A stretch of 64,000 bases of DNA from Fibrobacter succinogenes (GTDB taxonomy: Bacteria; Fibrobacterota; Fibrobacteria; Fibrobacterales; Fibrobacteraceae): positions 410-64,409 of the forward strand of contig CACXMH010000013.1 in the NCBI GenBank assembly GCA_902768715.1, in the 5' to 3' direction. Under the pieces are notes generated by a model, which worked only from the letters and a program-made list of their open reading frames with translations, was not told the DNA's origin and made no database searches. The position numbers and the translations under genes were made by a program. Within the stretch, counting starts at the first letter, position 1; each line of letters begins with the position of its first letter. Positions 3,169 to 18,441 of this stretch are shown in pieces.

Positions 3169-3372
3169 ATGTTGAACTATGCGTACCATTGCGGCCGTAG
3201 GCCGAAGAGTGATTCTTTCGATAATTCACTTCCTTTTCCCAACGAGGAAATCGAAGAGGAAATCGAGGAGGAGGAAGAAGAACTGGACGAAGAAGTCGAT
3301 TTTGACCAGCCGTCCTTCAAGCGTGACCAGATTTGGTCCGACTACGCCGAAGACCTGGATTACGACCAGTGA
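3169..3372 (+). CDS. Small, highly acidic hypothetical protein (67 aa; the ORF track extends it to 3133)
   Basis: GAGGAG is 6 nt upstream of the ATG at 3169. There is an EEIEEEIEEEEEELDEE tract. The stop TGA overlaps a GTG start of the next gene (GTGA). Confidence 0.4.
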   Translation: MLNYAYHCGRRPKSDSFDNSLPFPNEEIEEEIEEEEEELDEEVDFDQPSFKRDQIWSDYAEDLDYDQ

Positions 3373-5561
3373 TATGCCTTTCTAGGCATATCGTAGTACT
3401 AGGAACTTTTCTTTCGGCTATTCTGCTAGCCGCCTGTGCTCCGGCTCAGGCTCCAGTTGCAAATGATGTTCCTTCGGGCGGTCCTGTCGGCAAGCCCGAT
3501 TCTTTGGTGTATTCCGAAGACGGCCAGGAATCCTTTGCCCAGGTGGCCCTCCGGGAAAAGGTCCACGATTCCCTGGCGGTAAGGCCTTCTTGGACTTATT
3601 ACCAGTATGCCCTGGAGGCCATGGATAACCAGGAATGGCTCTTGGCCAGGCATTACCTGGACGAATCCCTGCGGCAGTTCATTGCCGAAAAGCACGACAC
3701 CCTTTACCACAACGTTCCCGAATCCGTTGATTCCATATACCGGGCGCAGATGCCGCTCCGCATTGTGGATGCCCTGGACGAGGTTTACCCCAACATTTCT
3801 GAAATCGGTGTAGATGCAGGGGTGTTCGAGCAGAACGAAGTGTCTATCGAGGGCGTGGACGCCCTGGACGAAAGCGTTGCGGATAGCGCTGCCCTGCAGG
3901 TTATCGAAAACTTCTTGGATACCATAGACGTGGCTCAGTTTACGCTGCCCGTGGTGTTCAACGAAAGGGTGATGCAAGAAATTTTCTACATGAGTGGCGG
4001 GGCCCGGTCCTTTACCGAAGGCTCCCTTAACCGCAAGACCGCCTACGACTCGTTAGTTTATTCTAAACTCGACGAGATGGGCATGCCCCGCGACCTGATT
4101 TACCTCGCCCTGGTGGAATCCGGTTTCAAGCTGAAGGCCTATAGCCGTGCCAAGGCCAGCGGCATGTGGCAGTTCATTCCGGAGACGGGCAAGCGCTACG
4201 GTCTTCAAGTCGATTATTGGGTGGACATGCGCCGCAATCCGGAGATGGCCACCACGGCTGCCCTCAAGTATCTGTCGCGCCTGTACAACGAATTCAACGA
4301 CTGGCTGTTGGCCATGGCCGCCTACAACTGCGGCGAGGGCCGCGTGCGCCGCTTGGTCAAGGAGAAGATGGCCGATTCTACCTGGGACACCACCCAGGTG
4401 GTGACCTACTGGGATCTGGAACTGCCCAAGGAAACCATGCGCTATGTGCCTCGTATTTTGGCCGCCATGGTGATAGGCCATTATCCTGAACAGTACGACA
4501 TGAAAATCAATCGGCAGTACAGGCCCGACTTTGATACGGTGACGGTTTTTGACTCTTTCCCGCTGGAGGAAGTGGCCAAGGTTTTGAAGGTTCCCGAAGA
4601 CACCCTGCGGAGCCTGAACATGGAACTGGTCAAGTGGTGCACGCCGCCCAACAGGGATTCTTACCTGCTTCGCCTGCCGGTGGGCACCCGCAGCGCCTTT
4701 GTTGATGGTTACGACAAGATGGAAAAGAACAACTTTTCTAGCTGGCACCACCACAAGGTCAAGCGGGGTGAAAGCTTGGGCGTGATTTCGCGGCAGTACG
4801 GCATTTCGGTGAAGGAACTCCAGCAGGCCAACGACATGAAGGGCACCCGCATTCGTGCGGGGCAGACCCTGCTGATTCCCATCAAGGTCACGCCCAAGAA
4901 ATCTACGGGCAAGAAACCTGCGAAGGTCAAGACCTATGTGGCCAAGTTGGGCGACAACGTGGCTACGGTGGCTCGGCTCTTTGGCGTATCTCAAGAAAGC
5001 ATCCGGGTGTGGAATTCCATGAAAGAGGACCACGTGGTGAATCCGGGGGATACCTTGTTCGTGTCCAAGCCGGAACTGAAGCCCGTGGTGCCCCAGGCGA
5101 GTTCGGCTCCGAAGCTTGCCAAGGGCGAACGCTACGTAGTGGGCGAGGGAGACACCTACGCCGAAATCGCGAAGAAGTTCGGCGTGCCTGTGGTGATGCT
5201 TCTGGAGGCCAACGGCGGCTACAGCCATCGCCTTTCGGTAGGGGATTCCCTGGTGATTCCGGAGTTTACCCAGACCGTGGTAAAGAACGCCCCGAAATCT
5301 TCTGAAAAGCAGGCCAAGGCGGACAAGTCTTCTAGCGAAAAGCCATCGGCCAAGCCGGCAAAGACCGCCGATAAGCAGGCGGGCTCGGCTAGCGCAAAGT
5401 CGGAAAAGCCTGCCAAGGAGCGGGTCCATGTGGTCAAGAAGGGGGAGGGCCTGTGGGACATTTCCCGCCAGTACGGCGTGACCATTGAGGACATTGTCCG
5501 CTGGAACGACCTCAAGGACACCAAAATCCGGATTGGTGACAAGCTCATCATCCGAAAATAA
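3369..5561 (+). CDS. Membrane-bound lytic murein transglycosylase (MltD-like) with four LysM domains; lipoprotein
   Basis: SLT-domain motifs are present (ESGF, ASGMWQFIPETG, AYNCGEGRV), with four LysM repeats in the C-terminal half. Starting at GTG 3369 gives a lipobox (LLAAC). The track start at 3333 would overlap the upstream ORF. Confidence 0.85.
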   Translation: MICLSRHIVVLGTFLSAILLAACAPAQAPVANDVPSGGPVGKPDSLVYSEDGQESFAQVALREKVHDSLAVRPSWTYYQYALEAMDNQEWLLARHYLDESLRQFIAEKHDTLYHNVPESVDSIYRAQMPLRIVDALDEVYPNISEIGVDAGVFEQNEVSIEGVDALDESVADSAALQVIENFLDTIDVAQFTLPVVFNERVMQEIFYMSGGARSFTEGSLNRKTAYDSLVYSKLDEMGMPRDLIYLALVESGFKLKAYSRAKASGMWQFIPETGKRYGLQVDYWVDMRRNPEMATTAALKYLSRLYNEFNDWLLAMAAYNCGEGRVRRLVKEKMADSTWDTTQVVTYWDLELPKETMRYVPRILAAMVIGHYPEQYDMKINRQYRPDFDTVTVFDSFPLEEVAKVLKVPEDTLRSLNMELVKWCTPPNRDSYLLRLPVGTRSAFVDGYDKMEKNNFSSWHHHKVKRGESLGVISRQYGISVKELQQANDMKGTRIRAGQTLLIPIKVTPKKSTGKKPAKVKTYVAKLGDNVATVARLFGVSQESIRVWNSMKEDHVVNPGDTLFVSKPELKPVVPQASSAPKLAKGERYVVGEGDTYAEIAKKFGVPVVMLLEANGGYSHRLSVGDSLVIPEFTQTVVKNAPKSSEKQAKADKSSSEKPSAKPAKTADKQAGSASAKSEKPAKERVHVVKKGEGLWDISRQYGVTIEDIVRWNDLKDTKIRIGDKLIIRK

Positions 5562-6566: not shown

Positions 6567-6586
6567 TACCCGAGCCTCGTGCCCCT

Positions 6587-8473
6587 TTACAGCAGTTCTT
6601 CCAGGGTCTGGTAAAGGGTTTCGGCTTCGATGGGCTTGCTCAGGTGGGCGTTGAGGCCTGCCTGCAGGCTGTTCTGCACGTCTTCGTCGAAGGCGTTTGC
6701 GGTGAGGGCGATGATGGGGATGGTTTTCGCGTCTTCCCGGTCCATGGCCCGTATGGCGGCGGTGGCCTGCAGTCCGTCCATTTCGGGCATGCGAACGTCC
6801 ATAAGGATGGCATCGTAGTAGCCTGGCTTATGGTCCCTGAACATTTCTACCGCAATGCGTCCGTTTTCGGCATGCTCCACGTTGATTTTCCGCATAGAAA
6901 GAATCATGGTGGTGATTTCGGCGTTTACGGCAACGTCTTCGGCAAGCAGGATTTTGCGGCCTTCAAGGTCAACCTTCGGTTTGTCCGTTCCGTCCCCGTT
7001 TGCCGCGCCCTGTCCACGCTGTCCGGATTCTTTGCGGAAACTCTTTTGCAGCGTAACGGTAACGGTGAACTTTGAACCGAGTCCCTTTTCGCTTTCCACA
7101 TCGATGTGTCCGTCCATAAGTTCCACGAGGCTCTTGGTAATGGGCAGTCCCAGGCCCGTGCTCCCGTACTTGCTGCTAAAGGATTCGTCTTCTTGGGCGA
7201 AAGTTTCGAATATACGGGGCAAGAAATCGGCAGCGATTCCGATACCCGTATCTTCAATGATAAAGCGGAGGGTGCATTTCTTGTTGCTGGCGGGCTCGCT
7301 TTCTACGGTCATCTTGATGCCGCCTCCTTCGGGGGTGAACTTGACGGAATTCCCGAGGATGTTAATCAAGATCTGGCGCAGCTTCGTCTCGTCGCCGATG
7401 TAGTTGCCCAAGGCTCCCTCTTTCACCTCGTAATGGTAAAGGATGTCCTTGCTCTCGCATTGCCCCTGGATGATGTAGTTTACCTGTTCCAGGATTTTCG
7501 AAAGGGAAAACTCTTCGTTCTTGAGGGTCATGCTGCCGGAATCGATACGGCTGATGTCCAGGATGTCGTTGATGATGCCCAGCAGGTGCTGCGCCGACGC
7601 GCCGATTTTTTCCAGATGGTCCTTGGTGGACTTGGGAATGTTCTTGTCGGTCAGGGCGATGCTGTTGAGCCCGATGATGGCGTTCATGGGGGTGCGGATC
7701 TCGTGGCTCATCTTGGAGAGGAATATGGTCTTTGCCTTGTTCGCCTTTTCGGCGGTCTCTAGGGCCTCTTTCAGGGCCTCGCGGCTAACTTCAAGCTTGT
7801 GACGGTATTCTTCCTTTTCGTCTTCTAGCACATAGCTGTGCAAGAAACTGATGCCAAGCATGTATCCCATGGCGTAGAAGGGCCACAGCGGAAAGAAAAC
7901 CTGGAATAGGAGGAACACCGCCATGGCAAGGCCGAATAGCCCGATGGTCAGGTGCCGCTGCCGGACAACCCCCTCGGTTTTGGTGGTGGTGTACAGGGTG
8001 TAAATGGATGTCGAAAGGAACATGAGGATTTGCAGGGCCAGCGCCACATGGCGCATGTAACCGGTGTGGTAGCTTCCGTCGCTTTCGAACCAGAAAAACA
8101 CGGGGTAGAAGAAATTGAAGATGATGCCGGCAAGAACCAGCCAGAAAATGATTTGCCCTACATGCAGGAGCCATCGCTCAAAGAAGTTCTTGCGGTCGAG
8201 ATAGGAAACCACGTAGTGGGTCCACAGCATGACTGTGGCAATCATGGCCACAAAATAAACGGTAGTGTCTGCAAACAGGAGCTTGATAAGGTGGTACTCG
8301 TCCAGGATACCCCACAGCATGTCGGTCACGTAATACACAAGTACGCCAAAAAGGAATCGCCGGTAATACTTTTTGGTAGGGGCGTTTTCCGCTCCGTCCT
8401 GCGGGCGCAACACGTCGCGGTTACCGATAAGCAGCAGGATTGTTGCCAGAATGCCTATGATGGAGTATGTCAT
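6587..8473 (-). CDS. Hybrid sensor histidine kinase with a polytopic (about 7TM) membrane sensor domain and a C-terminal receiver
   Basis: The first ~230 aa are a hydrophobic multi-helix region. H-box [13 protein letters not shown]; N/G boxes NILGNSVKFT, DTGIGI, GSTGLGL; receiver ILLAEDVAVN...ILMDVRMPEMDG...LSKP. Confidence 0.9.
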   Translation of the reverse strand: MTYSIIGILATILLLIGNRDVLRPQDGAENAPTKKYYRRFLFGVLVYYVTDMLWGILDEYHLIKLLFADTTVYFVAMIATVMLWTHYVVSYLDRKNFFERWLLHVGQIIFWLVLAGIIFNFFYPVFFWFESDGSYHTGYMRHVALALQILMFLSTSIYTLYTTTKTEGVVRQRHLTIGLFGLAMAVFLLFQVFFPLWPFYAMGYMLGISFLHSYVLEDEKEEYRHKLEVSREALKEALETAEKANKAKTIFLSKMSHEIRTPMNAIIGLNSIALTDKNIPKSTKDHLEKIGASAQHLLGIINDILDISRIDSGSMTLKNEEFSLSKILEQVNYIIQGQCESKDILYHYEVKEGALGNYIGDETKLRQILINILGNSVKFTPEGGGIKMTVESEPASNKKCTLRFIIEDTGIGIAADFLPRIFETFAQEDESFSSKYGSTGLGLPITKSLVELMDGHIDVESEKGLGSKFTVTVTLQKSFRKESGQRGQGAANGDGTDKPKVDLEGRKILLAEDVAVNAEITTMILSMRKINVEHAENGRIAVEMFRDHKPGYYDAILMDVRMPEMDGLQATAAIRAMDREDAKTIPIIALTANAFDEDVQNSLQAGLNAHLSKPIEAETLYQTLEELL

Positions 8474-11286
8474 GCTTTTCTCCCGTCCAGTACCCGTGCA
8501 AGCGTTTTGATCATCAGCTTCACATCTACGGGTTTTGCGATGTGGGCCTGCATGCCTGCGTCTTCGGCGGCCTTTACGTCTTCGGCAAAGGCGTTTGCGG
8601 TCATGGCCACGATGGGGATTTGTGCCAGGGCCTTGTTTTCAAGGAGCCGGATGTTCTTGGTGGCGGTATAGCCGTCCATGACGGGCATCTGGATGTCCAT
8701 GAGAATCAGGTCGTAGTAGCCGGGAGCGGACTTTTCCACCATCTCCACGGCGGTCTTTCCGTTTTCGGCGGTTTCTACGGCAAAGCCTGTCTGCAAAAGG
8801 ATCATCTTTGCGATTTCCAGGTTCACCAGGTTGTCTTCTACCAGAAGCGCGCGCTTGCCTGCAAAGGAAACTTCGCTGGATGCGCCTTCGTCGGATTCTT
8901 CGGGCTTGTCGCCGCCGAACTTGAGCAGGTCTTCTTCGGTGGCGAGCTTGAACTTGACCCGGATAATGATTTCGGTACCGTTCCCGAGGGAGGTGAGCAC
9001 CTCGATGGTACCGCCCATCATATCGACGATGCTCTTGGTGATGGCAAGGCCGAGCCCGGTTCCTTCGGTACGGCTGTTGGTGGAACTCCTTTCACGTTCG
9101 AAGGCGGTGAAAATCTTGCCTACAAAGTCCTTGGACATGCCGATGCCCGTGTCCTGGATTCGGATTTCGTAGAAGCCGTAGCCTTCTTCGCCTGCTCCAA
9201 CTTCCCATAGGGACACGTTGACGCTCCCCCTTTCGGGAGTAAACTTGAAGGCGTTGGAAAGCACGTTCAACAGCACCCGGTTCAGGTTTTTCTTGTCGCA
9301 CCAGACCAGGTTGTTCTTGACCTGCGATAGATGCAGCTTGAAATCGATTTTTTTCTGCTTCATTTGTTCGGCGAACAGGTCCCGGATGCTCTCGAAAATC
9401 TTGCACAGGTCTTCGGGTGAAAATTCCAGCTCTACCTTGCCGCTTTCGATACGGCTCATTTCCAGAATGTCGTTGATGAGGGTCAGCAGGTGCTGGCTTG
9501 ACATGTCAATCTTTTTCAGGTAGCTGTGCAGGTTTTCGGAGGCAGGCTCCTTCATGGCCAGGTTGGTATATCCGATAATGGCGTTCATGGGCGTGCGGAT
9601 ATCGTGGCTCATGTTGAACAGGAACTGGCTCTTGGCAAGGCTCCCTTCTACGGCGCGGATTTTTTCTCGTTCCACCAGTTCGTTCTTTTTGCGGACCTGG
9701 TTTTGCACATACAGCATAACGATTAGACCGATAAAGACAATGGCAAGGAGCACTATGCCGGTAAATACCAGCGTGTCACGGGAAGCATCGTCGGTTGCCC
9801 TTGCATACAGGAACTTTGCCACCCACATGATGGCGGAATACAGGAGCAGGGCAAACAGCACCACGCCCGAGATGGACATGCCGCTGTATTCGGCGAGGGA
9901 ACTCCGGCGAATGGTGCTCCAGTAAAAGACAAAGCCCAGCAGGCACCACAGCGACAGGAGCAAGAAGGCTGCAGAACTCATGGCTTCCATGGCGGCAAGC
10001 CTGGGCACAAGCTGCACCACCACGAGGATAATGGATATGATAGTGCCGATACCGCCGGCCACACGAACTTTGGAGTTGTTTTCGGTCTTTGCGATTTTCC
10101 AGGCCGCAGCCGATACATAGCCGAACCCTACAATGGCGCCGAAGGATGTCAGATCTACAAACCAGTTCAGCGTGTTTCGGCCCAAAAGCGCAAGCACAAT
10201 GGAAATGACCATGATGAACAGGATGCTGTTGGTGGTCTTCGAGAATCCGTCAGAAAGGATACGGTCTTCGGCCATGGTAGAAAGGATGCGCACGATGGCG
10301 CGGTAACCGCCTATAAGCCCGGTCAAGATGGCGGCAACGGCAGTGATTCCCAGGACCACAAGGCCAAAGGGTCCCATAATCTCTTTTACCCCGTAGAAAA
10401 CGGGCACGGAAACGACCCCTTGTAGCGTGCCGATTTTGGAGACATAGTCACTCCAGGAGCTGAATCCTTCTGGAACAACGGCCACTCCTACCAGTGCAAT
10501 CGATATGTACGAAATGGCGGCCAGGATAATGGCGATGGCGATAATCCACTTGGACTTTGAGGGCGCAAACTTGAAGCGGTAGGTCTCGAAGCAGGCTACG
10601 TCAAAGCCCACAAAGGCCCACGGGGCAAGAATTACCAGGCTGAAAATGCCGTAAAACGGGTTCAGCCCGGCCGTACCGAAAATGGGGCCGCTCGTGAGGG
10701 CGCCTGTAGCGATGGCCTTGGGCAGGCAGATAATCCCGATAATGACAATTCCTATGAACAGGATCAGTGCGAAGAGGGTTTGCAACTTGTGCAAGATTCC
10801 CTTCAGGAGCAAGAATAGGGTTCCGACCACGGCGAGGCTCGCCACAGATACCATGGCCTCGGTAAGGAAAACCTGGTGCCCCGCTACCGTATAGCTGTAG
10901 CCGACTTGCAGGGTGTCGCCCAACAGGAGTCTCGCCACGATAAAAAGCGCGGTCGCGTTCAGGAAAACGACGGTCAGGTAAGAAAGGCACAGGAACCAGG
11001 AACAGAGAAAGGCGTGGTCACGGCCGAAGGCTTCCTTGGCGTAGGCGTACACACCGCCGGGCTGGCCGTTTCGACCCATCAGGTAAGAAAAATTGTAGCC
11101 TATCACCAGCATGATAGCCATACCCACCAGCATGGCGATGAGGGTTCCCAACGGGCCTGCCACCGGAAGGAACGTGGTCCCCGGCATCACGAATATTCCC
11201 CATCCGACCATGACACCGAAAGCCATGCCCCAGACGTCTAGGCGCGAAATGTATTTTGAAATTGCTGAATCCTTGTCTTGCAGCAT
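8470..11286 (-). CDS. Amino-acid/polyamine (APC-family) permease-like domain fused to a hybrid histidine kinase with receiver
   Basis: The N-terminal ~470 aa look like a 12-TM APC permease (GMAFGVMVGWGIFVMPG...GGVYAYAKEAFG). Extra TM helices follow, then H-box [14 protein letters not shown], an HATPase domain (DTGIGM, GTGLGLAI) and receiver LLVEDNLVN...[12 protein letters not shown]...IAKP. Confidence 0.8.
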   Translation of the reverse strand: MLQDKDSAISKYISRLDVWGMAFGVMVGWGIFVMPGTTFLPVAGPLGTLIAMLVGMAIMLVIGYNFSYLMGRNGQPGGVYAYAKEAFGRDHAFLCSWFLCLSYLTVVFLNATALFIVARLLLGDTLQVGYSYTVAGHQVFLTEAMVSVASLAVVGTLFLLLKGILHKLQTLFALILFIGIVIIGIICLPKAIATGALTSGPIFGTAGLNPFYGIFSLVILAPWAFVGFDVACFETYRFKFAPSKSKWIIAIAIILAAISYISIALVGVAVVPEGFSSWSDYVSKIGTLQGVVSVPVFYGVKEIMGPFGLVVLGITAVAAILTGLIGGYRAIVRILSTMAEDRILSDGFSKTTNSILFIMVISIVLALLGRNTLNWFVDLTSFGAIVGFGYVSAAAWKIAKTENNSKVRVAGGIGTIISIILVVVQLVPRLAAMEAMSSAAFLLLSLWCLLGFVFYWSTIRRSSLAEYSGMSISGVVLFALLLYSAIMWVAKFLYARATDDASRDTLVFTGIVLLAIVFIGLIVMLYVQNQVRKKNELVEREKIRAVEGSLAKSQFLFNMSHDIRTPMNAIIGYTNLAMKEPASENLHSYLKKIDMSSQHLLTLINDILEMSRIESGKVELEFSPEDLCKIFESIRDLFAEQMKQKKIDFKLHLSQVKNNLVWCDKKNLNRVLLNVLSNAFKFTPERGSVNVSLWEVGAGEEGYGFYEIRIQDTGIGMSKDFVGKIFTAFERERSSTNSRTEGTGLGLAITKSIVDMMGGTIEVLTSLGNGTEIIIRVKFKLATEEDLLKFGGDKPEESDEGASSEVSFAGKRALLVEDNLVNLEIAKMILLQTGFAVETAENGKTAVEMVEKSAPGYYDLILMDIQMPVMDGYTATKNIRLLENKALAQIPIVAMTANAFAEDVKAAEDAGMQAHIAKPVDVKLMIKTLARVLDGRKA

Positions 11287-11288
11287 AC

Positions 11289-13754
11289 CTATTTCCTATT
11301 CTCCGCTGACCAGATGAGCTCTTCGAGAGTCTGGTACAGGTGTTCCGGTTCCACCGGTTTCGAAAGGTGCGCGTTCATGCCTACCTGCAGGGAACGCTGC
11401 ACGTCTTCGTCGAAGGCGTTTGCGGTCATGGCCACGATGGGCACCGTCCGGGCATCGCTCCGGTCCAGGGCGCGTATGGCCCGGGTCGCTTCCAGACCGT
11501 CCATTTCGGGCATGCGGATGTCCATCAAGATGGCATCGTAGTAATTTTCGTTGCTCTTGGCGAACATGTCCAGTGCAATCTGGCCGTTTCCGGCGTGATC
11601 GACAATGGCGTCTTTTACCGTCAACAGTTCCTTCATGATTTCGGCATTGATGAGGATGTCTTCGGCCAGCAGGATATGCCGCCCGGCGAGGCTTGCACGG
11701 CATTTTTTCTTGAAAAGGTTCATGTTGTTTCGACGGGCGATACGTTCGAACTCGTCGATGACGTTGCTTGCAAAGAGCGGTTTCGCAAGGAAACTGTCCA
11801 CCCCGATATGCAGCGCCTCGTCCATGATTTCGTCCCAGTTGTAGGCGGTAAGGATAATCACCGTAGTCTCGTTGTCGTAACGTTCACGGATCTTTGTCGC
11901 CACTTCCAGACCGTCCATGTTGGGCATTTTCCAGTCCAGGAGCACCAGGTTGTAGGGTTCGTGCTTGGCGTGCTTTACCTCCAGCATCTGCAGGGCTTCT
12001 TCGCCGCTGGTGCTGGTGTCCGCCTTGATGCCCGCCTCATCCAGCACGAACCGCGCGTGTTCGCAGGCGATGGGGTCGTCATCGACGACCAGCACGCTGA
12101 TGTCGCGCAGGTTCACGTGGCCTATCGACACTACCTCGTGGTCGCAGTTCTTGAGGGTCACCACCACCGTGAATACGGAACCTTCGCCTTTCTTTGACCT
12201 TACCGAGATAGAACCGTTCATCATTTCCACGATGTTCTTGGTAATCGCCATGCCAAGCCCTGTGGAGCCGAACTTGTTCTTGCGGCTGGAATCTTCCTGG
12301 GTAAAGGAATCGAACACCTTCGGGATAAAGGATTCGTCCATGCCGATACCCGTGTCTTTCACCTCGAATTTCAGGGTGCTCTGGTCTTCGAACTGGGCCA
12401 CCTTGGAAATGGTAAGGGTGATGCTCCCGGGGGCTTCGGTAAACTTGATGGCGTTGCTCAAGATGTTGATGAACACCTGCTTGAGCTTCATGTCGTCGCC
12501 GATAAAGTAGTCGTCAACATGGCCCTCGATATGGCATTCGAATTTGAGGCCCTTGTCCGAGCACTGGGACATGACCATGGTGTTGATCTGCTCTAGCATT
12601 CCGGCAAAGGAGAACTCCTCCTTGCGCATCACCAGCCTGCCGGATTCGATTCGGCTCATGTCCAGAATGTCGTTGATGAGCCCCAGCAGGTGCCGTGCAC
12701 TCCCGCCAATCTTTTCCAGGTATTCCCGGGTCCGCTCCGAAATGGCCGGGTCTCTCAGGGCGAGGCTGTTGAGGCCGATGATGGCGTTCATGGGCGTGCG
12801 GATTTCGTGGCTCATGTTCGAAAGGAAGGCGGTCTTTGCCTTGCTGGCCTCTTCCGCCGCATCCAGCGCTTCGCCCAGGGCCTGGTTCTTGGCCATGGAA
12901 TCCCGCATTTCGGCATCGATGATGGTAAGCCCCATGCCTACCGCATGCACCATGTGGTCCTTGCGGTCTTCGGGGTGATGCACCCCTGCCATGCGGATCA
13001 TTTCGTAGTATTCCTTGCCGTCCCGGCGGGCCAGGTAGCGGTAGGCGATCAGTTGTTCGTTCTGGAGCGCCTCGCGGATGTTCGCGGGCTCGATGAACTT
13101 CAAGAATCCTTCGCGGTATTTTTCCGTAACGCAGTTGTTGCCGTAGTCCCGGAACCGTTCCAGGTAAGGGAAATGCACTCCTTCGGCGTGCTGGTGGTGG
13201 TCTTCGGGGTCGCCGCGGTAACAGACGGCGTCGTCCTTGTCGAGGTCCACGTGATAGACGCTTCGGTAGTCCGAGGCCATGGCGGTAATCATGCTGTCCA
13301 GCTGCGCCCGCTGTTTTTGGCCTTCCAACAGCTTCTGTTCAATCTGTTCGTGCTTTTCGGTAATGTCCGAAATAAACACGTAGTAGAGCCCGCCGTAGTT
13401 TTCGCTGTCGGCGTAGTGTCCGTAATCATCTACCCAACGGAGCTTTCCGTCTTTGCGCTTGATGCGGTACTCGACATAGTCCAGTTTTTCGCTTGATTTT
13501 ACGATTTGCTTGTTGATAGAGGACTGAATTTTTTCGTAATCCTCGGTGTAAACCATGCCCTTGAAGGTGAAACCGGTCAGTGACTTGAATTCGTCCAGGT
13601 CACGGCACCCGAAAATATCGAACACCGTGTGGTTTGCGTAGAGCAGTTCTCCATCACCTTGTGCCTTGTAGATGAAGAATCCACCGGGCATGTAGCGCCC
13701 GATGTCTTCTACGATGGACATGTTCTTGTCGTTCAGCTTGAAATGGTTGAACAT
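11289..13754 (-). CDS. Cytoplasmic PAS-domain hybrid histidine kinase with two receiver domains
   Basis: No TM segments. The N-terminus is PAS-like. H-box [14 protein letters not shown] and an HATPase domain are present. REC1 is VLVVDDDP...[12 protein letters not shown] and REC2 is [10 protein letters not shown]...[12 protein letters not shown]. Confidence 0.9.
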
Positions 13755-13777
13755 GGTTGCACCTTTCGGTTAAGTGT

Positions 13778-14119
13778 TTATGCGCACAGTTCCGACAGTT
13801 TGTCCCTGAGGTTAAGCAGTTCCGACACCATGCCGCTGTAATCCATTGCGGTACGGTTACGCAGGGGTTCAGTAATCTTTACCGCCATGTCGAACATGGG
13901 CGTGAGGGCTAGGTTCCCAAGGACCCCTTTCAGGGCATGGACCGCGTCGAAGGCCTCGTCCAGGTTGTTGCTCTCGATAGACGTCTTGAGCTTGTCAAAG
14001 TTCTTTTCGGCGGGGATTGTGGCTACCAGCCGTAAGTACAGCGCCTCGTTTCCCATGCAGCGGCCAAGACCTTCTTCGGTATTGGCGCCGAAGGCTTTTA
14101 GTTTTTCGATAGTAATCAT
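13778..14119 (-). CDS. Histidine phosphotransfer (Hpt) protein
   Basis: 113-aa helical protein with the canonical Hpt motif AVHALKGVLGNLAL. Confidence 0.85.
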   Translation of the reverse strand: MITIEKLKAFGANTEEGLGRCMGNEALYLRLVATIPAEKNFDKLKTSIESNNLDEAFDAVHALKGVLGNLALTPMFDMAVKITEPLRNRTAMDYSGMVSELLNLRDKLSELCA

Positions 14120-15819
14120 GGGGCGTTTCTCCTATATTCAAGTTCTTTCTCTATAAACTTTTTGAATTCCTCGGGCGGGACCGGCTTCGAGAAGTAATAT
14201 CCCTGAATGATACCGCAACCCATTTGCTTCAGGGTTTTCAGCTGGGAGTCGGTCTCTACGCCTTCGGCCACCGTGGGCACGTTCAGGAACTTGGCGATGT
14301 CGATGACCAGTTCCACCAGCTTCATGTTCCGTTCGTCTTTTTCCATGTTGCGGATGAACGACATGTCGATTTTCAAAATATCGATGGGGAGGCTCGTAAT
14401 CATGTTGAGGGAGGAGTACCCGGAACCGAAATCGTCCATCTCGATACGGAATCCTTTCTTGCGCAGGTTCTCTACAACCTCGATGAGCCTTCTTGCATTT
14501 TCGGAGTAGGCGCTTTCGGTAATTTCCAGCATGTATTCGCTGGGAGAAAGGCCGTTTCCCTTGAGGATGTTGTCCAGCTTGGATTCGAGACTCGGGTCCA
14601 GAATGTCGATGCGGGAAACGTTCACCGAGACGGGGACGGTGATTCCGAACTGTTCCTTCCACTTGCGGATCTGGGCGGCGGCTTCGCTCCACACGAAGTT
14701 ATCCACCTTCTGGATAAGCCCGTTGGATTCGAAAAGTGGGACAAAGTCACTCGGGCTCACGAACCCGAGTTTCGGGTGGTTCCAGCGGATAAGCGCTTCG
14801 GCGCTGGTAAGTCTCGGCGTGTCGCCCTCTATGTTGTACTTGGGCTGGAAATAGACCACCAGGTCCTTGTTGGCGATGGCTTCGGGCAGGTCGCGGATGA
14901 GGGTTTCTTCAAAAACATGCCTTGCGTGAATTTCATTGTCGTAGCGGGCGAGGGTATGGGTGTAGTCGCCCCGAATCTGGTCGCAGGCGATTTTTGCCCG
15001 GTCAAACCAGGCCTCTACTTCTACGTCTTTGGACACGTTTTCCCAAAGGCCGCAACGCACGCGGATGTTGTTCATCTTGAAATCGTTCAGCACGTTCAAG
15101 ATGGCCACGTGCAGGTCTTCGTAGTCGTCCTGATGGGCGGCATAGACATAGAAGGTATCTGCGTTTGCTCGGCAGGCCATGGCGTTCATGGCCGGCAGCT
15201 CCCTTTCCAGGGTTTCCGCTATTTTCGAAAGTAGCAGGTCGCCAAAGGGCCTTCCGCAGAACTCGTTCACCAGGTGGAATCGCTCGATGTCAATGACCAG
15301 CACGTCGCGGCTGGTGTCTGCATCCCAGCGCTCGATCTGGCGGATGTATTCAAAGAAATAGTCGTGGGTGTAGAGCCCCGTGACGGAGTCCCTTTCGGTC
15401 TGCTTGATGAGGCTCTGGCCTTCGAACAGCTCGATAATGCGTTCGCAGCGGGCAAGCACCACCTCGGGCATGTCAAAGGGTTTCTTGATAAAGTCTTCTG
15501 CACCCAGTTTCAGGCTCCTGACTTCGGATTCTTTTTCCGAGGTCATCACGATGACGGGAATCCGCTTAAGGGATTCGTCTTCGCTCCGCTTCTGCAAGAA
15601 CTGGAAACCGTCCATGACAGGCATGAGCAGGTCCAGCAGCACCAGGGAATAGCTGGAATCCTGCCTTGCAAGTTTTTCCAGGGCGTCTTTCGCGTTGTCG
15701 GCATAGCTGACCGTATATTCCTGCGAAAGGATATTCCCGAGTATCTCGCGGTTGATCAGTTCGTCATCTACGATGAGGACGTTCCTCTTGATGGTCCTGT
15801 TCTGTCGAAACTTTTTCAT
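14116..15819 (-). CDS. Response regulator: REC, degenerate GGDEF, and EAL (predicted c-di-GMP phosphodiesterase)
   Basis: REC: LIVDDE, LLDLLMPVMDG, IKKP. In the GGDEF domain the GG(D/E)EF site reads NADTF. The EAL motifs are intact (EALIRW, EITES, DDFGSGYSSL, KIDMSF, AEGVET, QGYYFSKP). Confidence 0.9.
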   Translation of the reverse strand: MKKFRQNRTIKRNVLIVDDELINREILGNILSQEYTVSYADNAKDALEKLARQDSSYSLVLLDLLMPVMDGFQFLQKRSEDESLKRIPVIVMTSEKESEVRSLKLGAEDFIKKPFDMPEVVLARCERIIELFEGQSLIKQTERDSVTGLYTHDYFFEYIRQIERWDADTSRDVLVIDIERFHLVNEFCGRPFGDLLLSKIAETLERELPAMNAMACRANADTFYVYAAHQDDYEDLHVAILNVLNDFKMNNIRVRCGLWENVSKDVEVEAWFDRAKIACDQIRGDYTHTLARYDNEIHARHVFEETLIRDLPEAIANKDLVVYFQPKYNIEGDTPRLTSAEALIRWNHPKLGFVSPSDFVPLFESNGLIQKVDNFVWSEAAAQIRKWKEQFGITVPVSVNVSRIDILDPSLESKLDNILKGNGLSPSEYMLEITESAYSENARRLIEVVENLRKKGFRIEMDDFGSGYSSLNMITSLPIDILKIDMSFIRNMEKDERNMKLVELVIDIAKFLNVPTVAEGVETDSQLKTLKQMGCGIIQGYYFSKPVPPEEFKKFIEKELEYRRNAP

Positions 15820-15831
15820 CGGGAATCTCCG

Positions 15832-18441
15832 TTATGGAATCATCGTTTCCAGGGTTTCAAAGAGGGTTTCGGGCTGCACGGGCTTTGAAAGGTGGGCGTT
15901 GAGGCCCGCCTGCAGGCTCCGCTGCACGTCTTCGTCGAAGGCGTTGGCCGTAAGGGCGATAATCGGGATTTTCTTGGCGTCGGCCCGGTCCATCTTTCGG
16001 ATGGCCATGGTGGCCTGCAAGCCGTCCATTTCCGGCATGCGCATGTCCATGAGAATGGCGTCGTAATAGCCTTCGGGCTGCTTGCTGAACATCTCCACGG
16101 CAATCTTGCCGTTTACGGCGATGTCCGTTTTCATGCCGCGCATTTCCAGAACGTTTTCCATAATCTGGGCGTTGACTTCTACGTCTTCGGCAAGGAGTAT
16201 GTGCCTGCCCTTCAGTTCCGCCTTTTTGCGGGAAGACTGTTCTGCGCTCCGTTTTTTCTTGAGCACGGTCTTGAATTCGTCCAGCAGCGCTCCCGTAAAG
16301 ATTGGCTTTGCGATAAAGCTATCTACGCCGGCCTGGATGGCCTCGTCCAGGATGTCGTCCCAGTTGTAGGCGGTTAGGATAATGATTGCCGACTCGTCGC
16401 CGGTGGTGGCGCGTATCTGCCTTGCGGTCTCTACGCCGTCCATCTCGGGCATCTGCCAGTCCACGATAATCAGGTTGAAAGGCTCCCTGCGGGCGTGGCG
16501 CAGCTTGACCATCTCCACGGCCTCCTTTCCGGAATTGGCCGTTTCGGTGGCGATTCCCGCCAGCTCCAGCACCAGCTTTGCATGCTCCAGGGCCACCGGG
16601 TCGTCATCGACTACAAGCACGCTCAGTTCGTTCAGGTTGATGTCGATGTCTCCGTTGTCCTTCTCGTGCTTTTTCGTAGAATCTTGCAGGGTGACGGTAA
16701 TGGTAAAGGTGGTGCCCTTGCCCTTTTCGCTTTCTACCTCGATGTTGCCGTTCATCAGTTCCACGATACTCTTGGAAATGGCAAGGCCCAGGCCAGAACC
16801 GCCATACTTGCTGGAACTGCTGGTGTTTTCTTGGGTAAAGGTCTCGAACAGCTTGGGCAAGAATTCCTTGCTCATGCCGATACCCGTGTCCTTGATGGTA
16901 AACCGGAGGGTGGACTTGCTGTTGAACGAGGCTGTCTTCTGGACGCTGAAATCGATGCTCCCGCCCTTGTTGGTGAACTTGACGGCGTTTCCGAGGATGT
17001 TGATGAGCACCTGTCGGAGCTTCATGTCGTCGCCTACGAAGTATTCGTCTATGTTTCCGACAAAGTGGCAGTTGTACTGGATTCCCTTTTCTTGACACTG
17101 CACGCTGAACATGGTGTTCACCTGCTCCATAAGCTTGGAGAAGGGGAATTCTTCGTTTTTCAGGGCGAACTTGCCCGATTCGATGCGGGACATGTCCAGG
17201 ATTTCGTTGATGAGGTTCAGCAGGTGTTCGGCGGAGCCTCCGATTTTTTGCAGGTAGTCCTTGACCTTGTCCGAAAGTCCCGGTTCATGGAGGGCGAGGC
17301 TGTCCAGCCCGATGATGGCGTTCATTGGGGTGCGAATCTCGTGGCTCATGTTGGAGAGGAATATGGTCTTTGCCCTGTTGGATTCTTCTGCCACCTTCAG
17401 GGCCTCGGACAGGGCCTCCCGCTTGATACGGTCCTCGGCTTCCTGGATTTCGTGCTGGAGCGAAACCCTTGTGGTGCGCCGGACATGCAAGATGATAAAG
17501 ACGAACATGGCGACGAGCACAAAGGCCGTTACCGCCGAAAGGAACTGGCTCCGGACGATGATTCCCGAAGAGATGCTGCCAATCTGGTTGCTGATGACAC
17601 TTTCCCGGATGAGGTAGGTGAGCATCCAGTCCGTGTTGTGGATGGGCACGTAGTACAGGGTCTCGCGAATGTTGTTGTAGGTGAACGAGACTTCGCCTTC
17701 GATGTGTCCGTTGAAATCGTCCTTTACCTTTTCAAAGGAATAGCCCATGTCGTAATCGGCGTGACTGAGGGCATTCAGCAGGTTGTCTTCGCTGGCAAGG
17801 CCTCCCAGCACCATGTTGGTGAGGGCTTTCCCGTCTTTGGTGTAGATGTTACAGAAGGTGGAGTTGTTGTTGCCTCCCTGCAAGGAGAGCCCTTCTAGCA
17901 GGTTCGGGATACTCAATTCCATGAAGCACACCACCAGGACCCGGTCTTCTAGGGGTAGCCGGTCAACGGGGATGGCGATGATGATGGTCTTGTTTTCGGC
18001 GCTTACGTTCTTGATGGAAATTTCGGGTTTCTGGAGGTTGTTGTAGTCGATGTTGTACAGTTGGATGTCGGTGCGGGTTCCACGGGAGGTGTAGATAAGT
18101 CCCGTAGTGTCCACGAAGGCAAACTTTTCGAGCCCGTAGAGCTGTTTCATACGGGCCTGGTAGGCCTGGAGTTTTTCGATGCTCTTGAGGTCGTCTTTTT
18201 CGATAAGGCCTATGGCGATGTCCATGTCGCTGATAAAGTCCGCAAGCCTTGCGGAAACCACCTGCTCGCGACGTTCGGCCAGTTCGTTCAGGTAAAGGAG
18301 GCTCACGCTCCTGACAGCCTTTTCGGTGTCTGCGCCGGCGCTTTTGCCGTTCCAGAAAGAGCCTACAATCAGAATGGCCGCTACAACGATTGCCGCCGTG
18401 ATGGCGGCCCGCATAATGCTGGCCTGTTTTTTTGATTCCAT
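15832..18441 (-). CDS. Hybrid histidine kinase with a periplasmic Cache-like sensor domain and two receiver domains
   Basis: Two TM helices bracket a ~270-aa extracytoplasmic domain. H-box [14 protein letters not shown] and an HATPase domain are present. REC1 is VLVVDDDP...IIVDWQMPEMDG and REC2 is ILLAEDVEVN...ILMDMRMPEMDG. Confidence 0.9.
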   Translation of the reverse strand: MESKKQASIMRAAITAAIVVAAILIVGSFWNGKSAGADTEKAVRSVSLLYLNELAERREQVVSARLADFISDMDIAIGLIEKDDLKSIEKLQAYQARMKQLYGLEKFAFVDTTGLIYTSRGTRTDIQLYNIDYNNLQKPEISIKNVSAENKTIIIAIPVDRLPLEDRVLVVCFMELSIPNLLEGLSLQGGNNNSTFCNIYTKDGKALTNMVLGGLASEDNLLNALSHADYDMGYSFEKVKDDFNGHIEGEVSFTYNNIRETLYYVPIHNTDWMLTYLIRESVISNQIGSISSGIIVRSQFLSAVTAFVLVAMFVFIILHVRRTTRVSLQHEIQEAEDRIKREALSEALKVAEESNRAKTIFLSNMSHEIRTPMNAIIGLDSLALHEPGLSDKVKDYLQKIGGSAEHLLNLINEILDMSRIESGKFALKNEEFPFSKLMEQVNTMFSVQCQEKGIQYNCHFVGNIDEYFVGDDMKLRQVLINILGNAVKFTNKGGSIDFSVQKTASFNSKSTLRFTIKDTGIGMSKEFLPKLFETFTQENTSSSSKYGGSGLGLAISKSIVELMNGNIEVESEKGKGTTFTITVTLQDSTKKHEKDNGDIDINLNELSVLVVDDDPVALEHAKLVLELAGIATETANSGKEAVEMVKLRHARREPFNLIIVDWQMPEMDGVETARQIRATTGDESAIIILTAYNWDDILDEAIQAGVDSFIAKPIFTGALLDEFKTVLKKKRSAEQSSRKKAELKGRHILLAEDVEVNAQIMENVLEMRGMKTDIAVNGKIAVEMFSKQPEGYYDAILMDMRMPEMDGLQATMAIRKMDRADAKKIPIIALTANAFDEDVQRSLQAGLNAHLSKPVQPETLFETLETMIP

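Follow-up and report, generated by a model that had tools for sequence, protein, structure and literature searches.

In the window analyzed here, which is the whole 64,000-nucleotide stretch from position 410 to 64,409 of the Fibrobacter succinogenes contig CACXMH010000013.1 (assembly GCA_902768715.1), a gene at positions 8470-11286 of the minus strand encodes an APC-family permease domain that runs on into a hybrid histidine kinase. The original prediction, made from the letters alone, had placed both parts in one polypeptide without stating the strand. The open reading frame (ORF) list gives one uninterrupted ORF of 938 amino acids with an ATG start, and the stop or frameshift that might have parted two genes was looked for between the permease and kinase halves and not found. 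The gene and its domains are laid out as follows (TM, transmembrane helix):

8470..11286, minus strand: complete hybrid sensor kinase gene with the order APC permease, 2 TM, HisKA, HATPase_c, REC (ORF list, Pfam, alignment of 32 orthologues)
9901..11247, minus strand: APC-family permease domain, residues 14-462, TM1-TM12, LeuT fold (Pfam, Foldseek, profile against PDB)
9709..9873, minus strand: TM13-TM14 hairpin, residues 472-526, which brings the chain back to the cytoplasm (hydropathy, AlphaFold2)
9637..9708, minus strand: helical linker (residues 527-550) that runs on from TM14 into DHp helix 1 (full-length model, Pfam, alignment)
9439..9636, minus strand: HisKA/DHp domain, phospho-acceptor H561 (codon 9604-9606) in the motif SHDIRTPMN (Pfam; H561 invariant)
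8950..9297, minus strand: HATPase_c domain with N box N674/N678, G1 box D712-G714-G716 and G2 box G742-T-G-L-G746 (Pfam; motifs invariant)
8503..8847, minus strand: receiver with E817/D818, phospho-acceptor D864 (codon 8695-8697), T896 and K918 (Pfam; residues invariant)

In the Pfam search, AA_permease_2 (PF13520) matched residues 14-428 with 61-63 bits (gathering cut-off 27) and AA_permease (PF00324) residues 21-462 with 27-29 bits (gathering cut-off 24.6), followed by HisKA (residues 551-616, E 7e-19), HATPase_c (664-779, E 5e-25) and Response_reg (814-928, E 1e-22). Thus, the HisKA/HATPase core and the receiver expected behind the permease are present, with intact catalytic motifs. The two peptides that had been quoted for the N-terminal part were also found, GMAFGVMVGWGIFVMPG being TM1 (GVMVGWGIF, residues 24-32) and GGVYAYAKEAFG residues 77-88. 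Additional TM helices beyond the permease had been anticipated; there are exactly two of them, TM13 (472-495) and TM14 (499-526), which follow the 12 core helices by hydropathy and in two AlphaFold2 models. Since APC carriers have both termini in the cytoplasm, the even number of added helices places the kinase in the cytoplasm as well.

We considered whether a sequencing or assembly error had joined a permease gene and a neighboring kinase gene. No point in support of this was found, and we regard the possibility as negligible, because the same architecture and length recur across independent assemblies. A clustered-protein search with residues 1-541 as query gave 1,040 clusters at E<=1e-3 among 5.8 billion proteins; the top 120 cluster representatives, which stem from independent assemblies, nearly all have 920-947 amino acids, the four Pfam domains and 60-65% identity to the query, with a few shorter ones. 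There are thus more than 100 independent full-length orthologues of equal length, and the locus is present in four Fibrobacter assemblies at ~96% nucleotide identity. The reading frame is continuous, and the junction itself consists of the TM hairpin and an unbroken helix; the orthologue alignment (n=32, 76% mean column identity) is free of indels over the whole stretch from TM13 to DHp.

The N-Terminal Module Has an APC/LeuT Fold With Conserved Pocket Motifs

The first ~470 residues had been taken for a complete 12-TM APC transporter, and hidden Markov model (HMM), profile-versus-PDB and fold searches agree on an APC-family permease domain of ~460 residues. A phmmer search of PDB sequences with the membrane part as single-sequence query returned spurious G protein-coupled receptor matches alone and was uninformative, and therefore profile and fold searches were needed. 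With a profile of eight orthologues, CAT1 (4e-10) and GkApcT (3e-6) were found among the PDB sequences, together with plant CAT4 and xCT. The AlphaFold2 model of residues 1-545 has a mean pLDDT of 78.8 and a pTM of 0.83, with helices broken at residues 27-30 and 224-228. Its Foldseek matches in the PDB were LeuT-fold carriers exclusively, so that structure prediction bears out the APC/LeuT fold. The top match was GkApcT (6f34; E 1.8e-11, TM-score 0.76 on the target), and others were AdiC, mouse CAT1, y+LAT1/2, BasC, KimA, ApcT and LAT1, as well as the more distant NKCC and NCC. Target-normalized TM-scores of GkApcT, AdiC, BasC and ApcT were 0.74-0.78 at a probability of 1.00, a probability shared by CAT1 and y+LAT, and the CAT1 alignments were ~570-587 columns long.

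The HMM searches had also been expected to name the subfamily. Here, membership in the APC family was confirmed, with PF13520 and PF00324 both above their cut-offs, but no NCBIfam cut-off was reached. As an NCBIfam run with the full-length protein was dominated by kinase families, it was repeated with the permease part alone, which scored 49.8 with TIGR00909 (TC 2.A.3.6; cut-off 556.8), 43.3 with BcaP (cut-off 690) and 25.8 with CAT (cut-off 681.7). In a lenient Pfam scan of residues 1-560 (E<=10), the two permease models matched and nothing else; there was no SSF, STAC, PAS, HAMP, Spore_permease or Amt match. Judged by its sequence, the N-terminal module is a true member of the APC family (TC 2.A.3) that lies outside any named subfamily.

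Pocket residues were assigned by alignment to CAT1 and GkApcT. The conserved motifs of the module are:

11191..11217, minus strand: TM1 unwound-region motif GVMVGWGIF (G28-W29-G30) with the clade signature GWG (invariant in 32 orthologues; CAT1/GkApcT alignment)
11008..11028, minus strand: motif FGRDHAF of the cytoplasmic loop IL1 (intracellular loop 1) with D90 (codon 11017-11019; invariant in orthologues)
10600..10623, minus strand: TM6 unwound-region motif PWAFVGFD (W223, G227, F228, D/E229; invariant or nearly so; CAT1/GkApcT alignment)
10255..10320, minus strand: TM8-IL4 motif GLIGGYR...TMAEDRIL (T322, G326/G327, E340, D341; alignment to CAT1)
10138..10164, minus strand: TM10 motif WFVDLTSFG with the buried acidic D378 (W375, D378 and T380 invariant in orthologues)

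In TM1, the consensus GVMVGWGVF of this family, which we call the GWG family, aligns to GSTLGAGVY of CAT1 and GAIIGTGIF of GkApcT, such that GWG stands where these carriers have GAG and GTG, respectively; W29 is kept in 104 of 117 clade sequences. In TM6, PWAFVGFE/D of the family aligns to FYAFVGFD (CAT1) and FFAYIGFD (GkApcT). The TM8-IL4 segment, for which GkApcT was not compared, reads RVIYAMAEDGLL in CAT1 and RVLSTMAEDKIL in the GWG family. Its invariant glycine pair G326/G327 tentatively aligns with the pocket-size position 321 of GkApcT. D378 of TM10 is kept in 101 of the 117 clade sequences.

A Continuous Helix Is Predicted to Join the Permease to an Intact Kinase

In the full-length AlphaFold2 model (pLDDT 74.6), residues 499-578 form one unbroken helix, which is predicted to comprise TM14, a 24-residue linker and the DHp helix 1 that carries H561. 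Residues 462-560 gave no HAMP, PAS or STAC match (Pfam, E<=10). As modeled, this continuity of TM14 with DHp links transporter core and kinase in the most direct way possible. All catalytic residues of the kinase and the receiver are invariant in the 32 orthologues. Orthology to named kinases (TorS, BarA, LuxQ, ArcB and others) was not found, since all NCBIfam equivalogs remained far below cut-off (e.g., TorS with 269 against 676).

Conservation Is Focused on the Substrate-Site Helices

Per-segment entropy was computed on the 32-orthologue alignment. It amounts to 0.33-0.56 bits in the substrate-site helices TM1, 3, 6, 8 and 10, to 1.07-1.35 bits in TM4, 5, 7 and 11, and to 0.45 bits in TM12, 0.52 in the linker and 0.60 in the DHp and CA domains of the kinase. 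When pooled, the substrate-site helices have 0.46 bits compared to 0.99 bits for TM2, 4, 5, 7, 9, 11 and 12 (p=1e-10). The pocket helices are constrained at least as strongly as the catalytic core.

It might be that the permease module has lost ligand binding and serves as an anchor or dimerization scaffold, with the kinase answering to the membrane state, a partner protein or another cue. For this speaks that no ligand is known and that the SLC5 domain of the kinase CbrA is dispensable for kinase activity (PMC7096432). However, a mere membrane anchor is argued against by the concentration of conservation on the pocket helices in place of an even distribution; nor would it need invariant unwound motifs in TM1 and TM6 and a buried TM10 aspartate across phyla and output types. 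We therefore consider this explanation improbable.

One Permease Clade Is Fused to Many Signaling Outputs

A HMMER scan with residues 1-462 against 1.84 billion representatives at 50% identity yielded 1,536 relatives at E<=1e-3, including 296 at E<=1e-30. A fusion census was carried out on the best 150 of the 1,536 relatives, of which the 116 with a near-complete permease domain were classified. C-terminal modules were assigned by local phmmer seeds and Pfam, with the following counts:

HK-REC (histidine kinase and receiver): 40 of 116 representatives, plus 2 that also match a LytS-type seed
HK alone: 13 of 116
GGDEF: 16 of 116
GGDEF-EAL or EAL: 4 of 116
HD_5 (HD-GYP-like): 3 of 116
SpoIIE phosphatase: 2 of 116 (P0206, P0231)
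LytS/His_kinase type: 1 of 116
TupA-like ATP-grasp: 1 of 116
C-terminal extension without assigned identity: 3 of 116
no C-terminal module: 31 of 116

Accordingly, ~73% of the 116 GWG-clade representatives are fused, which is a lower bound because several of the scattered unfused permeases bear the NCBI "partial" flag. About 19 of the 31 unfused permeases form one clade in a neighbor-joining tree. Since a single permease clade is joined to many signaling outputs, sensory-input behavior is indicated, and the GWG permease module is, as far as its architectures tell, a general signaling input domain. The single TupA-like case (P0154, 790 amino acids, metagenomic) combines the GWG permease with an ATP-grasp enzyme domain and not with a signaling output.

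Residues kept throughout the clade, fused or not, are G28-W29-G30, Y103, N110, P222-W223, G227-F228-E/D229, Y260, T322, G326, W375 and D378. D90 of IL1 is found in 54 of 57 HK-fused and 19 of 20 c-di-GMP-fused (cyclic di-GMP) members, and the standalone clade has T, N or G at this position. D90 is thus a candidate coupling residue or signal-transmission contact.

When a GGDEF-type member was used as the seed of another deep search, carriers were found in Lachnospiraceae, Oscillospiraceae, Ruminococcus and Selenomonadaceae, and further in Anaerolineaceae, Eggerthellaceae, Kiritimatiellae and Victivallales; their database names are all generic ("amino acid permease," "APC family permease," "hypothetical protein"). 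At 90% identity the family falls into ~1,000 clusters, and at 50% into roughly 300.

The Gene Belongs to a Multi-Kinase Operon With a Predicted c-di-GMP Output

That the gene sits in a multi-kinase operon was corroborated: it is part of a tightly packed run of six minus-strand genes from 18441 to 6587. The stop codon of the preceding gene lies 2 nt ahead of the target ATG, and the downstream gene overlaps in an ATGA.

15832..18441, minus strand: gene 1, hybrid kinase of 869 amino acids with a ~330-aa N-terminal region and two receivers (Pfam)
14116..15819, minus strand: gene 2, response regulator with REC, degenerate GGDEF and intact EAL (Pfam EAL 233 bits, REC, partial GGDEF)
13778..14119, minus strand: gene 3, stand-alone Hpt of 113 amino acids, His61 in HALKG (Pfam Hpt E 2e-7)
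11289..13754, minus strand: gene 4, PAS / HK / REC / REC hybrid kinase of 821 amino acids (Pfam)
8470..11286, minus strand: gene 5, APC hybrid kinase (ORF list, Pfam)
6587..8473, minus strand: gene 6, polytopic-membrane hybrid kinase of 628 amino acids, start overlapping the target stop (ATGA; ORF list, Pfam)

In the gene 2 regulator, RANADTF (15151-15171) replaces the GGDEF signature, and the EAL, DDFGSG, EGVE and QGYYF motifs are intact. The protein is probably a phosphorylation-controlled c-di-GMP phosphodiesterase and the output of the operon. The Hpt protein is a likely phosphoryl acceptor from the hybrid kinases. This gene content suggests a four-input phosphorelay via Hpt onto c-di-GMP hydrolysis. 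Two of the sensor regions have no Pfam match, namely the ~230-aa polytopic membrane domain of the 6587-8473 gene and the ~330 aa between two hydrophobic segments in the 15832-18441 gene. A terminator-like hairpin at 18511-18490, directly upstream of gene 1, weakly hints at the start of the operon; in a promoter/terminator consensus scan, sites were no more numerous than in shuffled sequence.

The presence of three adjoining hybrid kinases would also fit a reversed direction, in which the protein is primarily a transporter that is gated by its kinase-receiver appendage. The receiver could take phosphoryl groups via Hpt from these kinases, and APC-superfamily carriers with cytoplasmic regulatory domains exist, e.g., KimA with c-di-AMP (cyclic di-AMP), one of the Foldseek matches. 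However, the clade is also fused to GGDEF, EAL, HD_5 and SpoIIE domains, and because the products of these enzymes act on other targets, the membrane module should be the input. Moreover, the kinase has a complete autophosphorylation apparatus, and many orthologues are orphans without adjoining kinases. A reversed direction is thus quite unlikely, and slightly more so than a mere scaffold.

In the upstream region, at 3333-5561 on the plus strand, a 742-aa protein is encoded that, judged by eye only, resembles a lytic transglycosylase with repeated LysM-like motifs; it appears to be ordinary and unrelated to the APC-kinase gene.

The Fusion Gene Is Spread Over Ruminant-Gut Bacteria of Several Phyla

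A search for the same architecture in other phyla had been proposed, and it was indeed found in ruminant-gut Bacillota and a few further phyla. The scan covered one genome per GTDB species and gave 179 loci, with identities for the 80 that were listed. Uncultured rumen Fibrobacter metagenome-assembled genomes (MAGs; L001-L004) are 95-98% identical in amino acid sequence to the window gene, whereas the remaining loci among the 80 show 56-64% identity and stem nearly all from ruminant-gut assemblies. Bacillota carriers include Oscillospiraceae, Lachnospiraceae, Ruminococcus, Christensenellales, Eubacterium, Anaerovoracaceae, Erysipelotrichaceae and others. Further carriers among the 80 listed are two Chloroflexota bins and one Eggerthellaceae bin, and one cultured isolate is included, namely Lachnospiraceae bacterium FE2018 (L077).

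With Bacillota orthologues, the target shares 66-72% identity in its kinase-receiver half, compared to 35-40% with the three other hybrid kinases of its own operon. As this half is closer to the Bacillota orthologues than to its operon paralogues, the whole fusion gene is probably xenologous to ruminant-gut Bacillota genes and has moved across phyla. The breadth of occurrence in Bacillota as opposed to a single narrow Fibrobacter lineage suggests a transfer into Fibrobacter. The horizontal-transfer view draws solely on this identity pattern; GC content and GC at third codon positions (0.71) of the target equal those of its neighbors, so composition gives a recent transfer no support. Binning errors in MAGs could affect the minor phyla. 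In Fibrobacter, such an error is unlikely because four contigs share the flanks at 83-93% identity.

The operon region (6586-18441) has 95.5-96.4% nucleotide identity to the four species-level Fibrobacter MAGs L001-L004, whereas both flanks have 83-93%. By this comparison the operon is markedly better conserved than its surroundings, presumably through strong selection or recent within-genus spread. In a Clostridia MAG (L081, JAFUDS010000001.1, 4573-15422), the orthologue directly follows a PAS hybrid kinase and lies ~4.4 kb downstream of relaxase/MobC/NikA-like genes; ~1.3 kb downstream of the orthologue there is an SBP_bac_3 hybrid kinase. This may be a mobilizable element, which would be a possible explanation of cross-phylum spread.

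A Ligand-Binding Permease Module as the Probable Input of a Phosphorelay

Taken together, we consider it fairly probable that the gene encodes a membrane sensor kinase in which a ligand-binding APC-family (LeuT-fold) permease module is the input that feeds a phosphorelay. The architecture, the fold, the intact catalytic motifs, the conservation pattern, the fusion to signaling outputs across the family and the gene content of the operon are what the analysis shows; ligand class, direction of regulation, phosphorelay wiring and persistence of translocation are inferences, and the following steps are meant as a proposal. A small solute would bind in the canonical pocket of TM1, TM3, TM6, TM8 and TM10. 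Pocket occupancy, or the outward/inward rocking of the core, would be relayed via TM12 and the TM13-TM14 hairpin into DHp helix 1, possibly with participation of IL1, and would switch the kinase dimer between its kinase and its phosphatase state. In Fibrobacter, the phosphoryl group might then pass from H561 to D864, on to the Hpt protein of the operon and finally to the REC-(degenerate GGDEF)-EAL regulator, such that the APC input and the three other hybrid kinases would jointly set c-di-GMP hydrolysis.

The ligand is most likely an amino acid or a cationic amine, and direct sensing of amino acid or polyamine flux, as originally suggested, is plausible. The invariant aromatic and acidic set recalls the pockets of basic amino acid/polyamine antiporters, and the spacing from W223 to D229 equals that from W202 to E208 of AdiC. 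This may serve as a first lead toward a basic amino acid or a cationic amine. Precedents for a transporter fold as input are CbrA (PMC7096432, PMC13022988), Ks-Amt5 (PMC5764959), Sd-Amt1 (PMC11152129) and GerAB (PMC8617281).

Several points weigh against this interpretation. The permease part reaches no named-subfamily cut-off in NCBIfam, and therefore the substrate cannot be inferred by orthology and the ligand class is a guess. The pocket helices double as the structural core of the LeuT fold, so that their conservation is no proof of ligand sensing. In the best-studied analogue, CbrA, the transported ligand had no significant effect on kinase or transport activity in vitro, and the SLC5 domain is non-essential for kinase activity (PMC7096432); thus, a fused transporter need not perceive the stimulus. 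The Bacillota orthologues that were examined are either orphans or adjoin other hybrid kinases; their neighborhoods are not conserved and lack the Hpt and REC-EAL partners. A shared neighboring transporter, metabolic operon or cognate regulator was sought around them, and the neighborhoods differ. Because of this lack of conservation, the Hpt/REC-EAL wiring may be confined to Fibrobacter.

It could also be that the protein is a bifunctional transceptor of the CbrA type, which takes up its substrate for nutrition and whose kinase reports transport flux rather than binding. The canonical APC motifs are all kept, the pocket signature is common to the fused members and the ~19 standalone permeases, which are presumably real transporters, and CbrA itself transports histidine (PMC7096432). 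However, Ks-Amt5 is motif-complete and yet does not translocate (PMC5764959, PMC11152129), so the retention of motifs is uninformative on transport. Furthermore, the proton-coupling TM5 lysine of ApcT/GkApcT aligns to the invariant Gly179, which leads to the tentative view that the module is an equilibrative or non-transporting receptor, although the alignment is of low confidence in this region, which also counts against our own interpretation. A further counterpoint is that Fibrobacter generally counts as an assimilator of ammonia. Overall, a CbrA-type transceptor appears somewhat unlikely, if far less so than a scaffold or a reversed direction.

Beyond the sensor-kinase interpretation of the single gene, a broader and more tentative one can be put forward, which we would not yet bet on. 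The GWG APC clade might be a general-purpose LeuT-fold receptor that has largely given up transport, detects one class of gut or rumen metabolites and serves at least six output types as membrane input in at least five phyla of anaerobic gut bacteria. As a ready-made sensor it would have been passed across phylum borders, in the present case from Bacillota to Fibrobacter. The six output types in this conceivable scenario would be HisKA and LytS-type kinases, GGDEF, EAL, HD-GYP-like domains and the SpoIIE phosphatase. If it holds, transporter-derived receptors are common and not rare in prokaryotes.

Comparison With Known Transporter-Fused Sensors

Fusions of SLC5-type transporters to kinases have been described with CbrA, CrbS/MxtR and PrlS (PMC7918813). 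As had been stated from the start, sodium/solute symporter (SSS)-kinase fusions are an established class; a second described class went unmentioned, namely Amt fusions such as Ks-Amt5 (kinase) and Sd-Amt1 (HAMP-GGDEF) (PMC5764959, PMC11152129). Assignment of the target to known families was tried and rejected in three cases: to the CbrA family, as there is no SSF match at E<=10 and no STAC or PAS; to the Amt family, as there is no Ammonium_transp (PF00909) match and the fold search gave LeuT-fold carriers only; and to the GerAB family, as there is no Spore_permease (PF03845) match at E<=10 and no gerA/gerC-like genes are operon neighbors.

A close parallel is offered by CbrA, CrbS and PrlS, in which a complete LeuT-fold secondary transporter is likewise N-terminal to a histidine kinase in one polypeptide (PMC7918813, PMC7096432, PMC13022988). 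CrbS is a hybrid kinase like the target, and the transceptor concept, i.e., solute handling tied to two-component signaling, applies to both. That the present fusion would differ from this type is borne out by the Pfam results, which show no SSF, STAC or PAS: the target belongs to APC (TC 2.A.3, AA_permease_2) and the CbrA type to SSS (TC 2.A.21, SSF). The topology is 12+2 TM versus 13 TM, and CbrA has intervening STAC and PAS domains (PMC13022988), whereas in the target TM14 is predicted to be directly continuous with the DHp helix. The hosts are anaerobic gut Bacillota and Fibrobacter on the one side and Proteobacteria on the other; a review of the SSS reported that, at first glance, Gram-positives had no proteins of the Pfam ssf+HisKA type (PMC7918813).

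Ks-Amt5 and Sd-Amt1 share with the target the use of a transporter fold as receptor with varied C-terminal transducers and retained motifs, and with its clade the occurrence of fused and unfused members in one sequence cluster (PMC5764959, PMC11152129). In contrast to the 12-TM LeuT-fold alternating-access carrier of the target, they are 11-TM trimeric channel-like Amt proteins with ammonium as ligand. GerAB is also an APC-fold protein and senses amino acids via the canonical pocket in Bacillota (PMC8617281), but it belongs to the Spore_permease family and is a subunit on its own within a receptor of several proteins, with no fused kinase and with germination as output. The characterized carriers GkApcT/CAT (SLC7A1-4), AdiC, ApcT, BasC/LATs and BcaP resemble the target in fold and homologous sequence, including the motifs GxG in TM1, (F/W)AFVGF(D/E) in TM6 and MAED in TM8-IL4. 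They are 14-18% identical to it and have no fused signaling domains, and in TM1 the target has Trp (GWG) where they have Ser, Ala or Thr. Like the target, CATs have 14 TM helices. In LysP-CadC, a trigger-transporter pair, an APC lysine permease is co-sensor of a separate regulator, and Ssy1 and Gap1 are amino acid sensors of yeast; here, too, an APC amino acid permease reports substrate availability to signaling. These are, however, non-covalent partners or eukaryotic pathways, whereas the target unites permease and two-component kinase in a single polypeptide.

In the full-text literature, no paper that describes a fusion of an APC module to a kinase or to GGDEF was found, with TCDB, InterPro and subscription journals outside the search. 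Fusions of secondary transporters to two-component kinases are still regarded as rarities: CbrA was termed a "rare transceptor" in 2026 (PMC13022988), a sensor-kinase review of 2021 gives Ks-Amt5 as sole example of a transporter-fused kinase (PMC8534201), and a study of 2024 presented an S-component/5TMR case as first prokaryotic transceptor under a strict membrane-fold definition (PMC11109136). The APC case, in turn, is a large family and no singleton. Its members are annotated merely as "amino acid permease," and metabolic reconstructions of gut and rumen communities thus treat them as transporters. In the main fiber-degrading and fermenting taxa of the rumen, they likely act as sensors of nutrients or amines, and the cross-phylum, rumen-centered distribution points to an ecologically important signal. 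In Fibrobacter, this signal appears to feed c-di-GMP turnover, which governs attachment and biofilm behavior in many bacteria. With Lachnospiraceae bacterium FE2018 a cultured carrier is available for experiments, and the continuity of TM14 with DHp, as modeled, would make these proteins the simplest available system for how LeuT-fold alternating-access movement controls a kinase. After SLC5 and Amt, the APC (amino acid/polyamine/organocation) carriers are the third transporter family among kinase-fused transporters.

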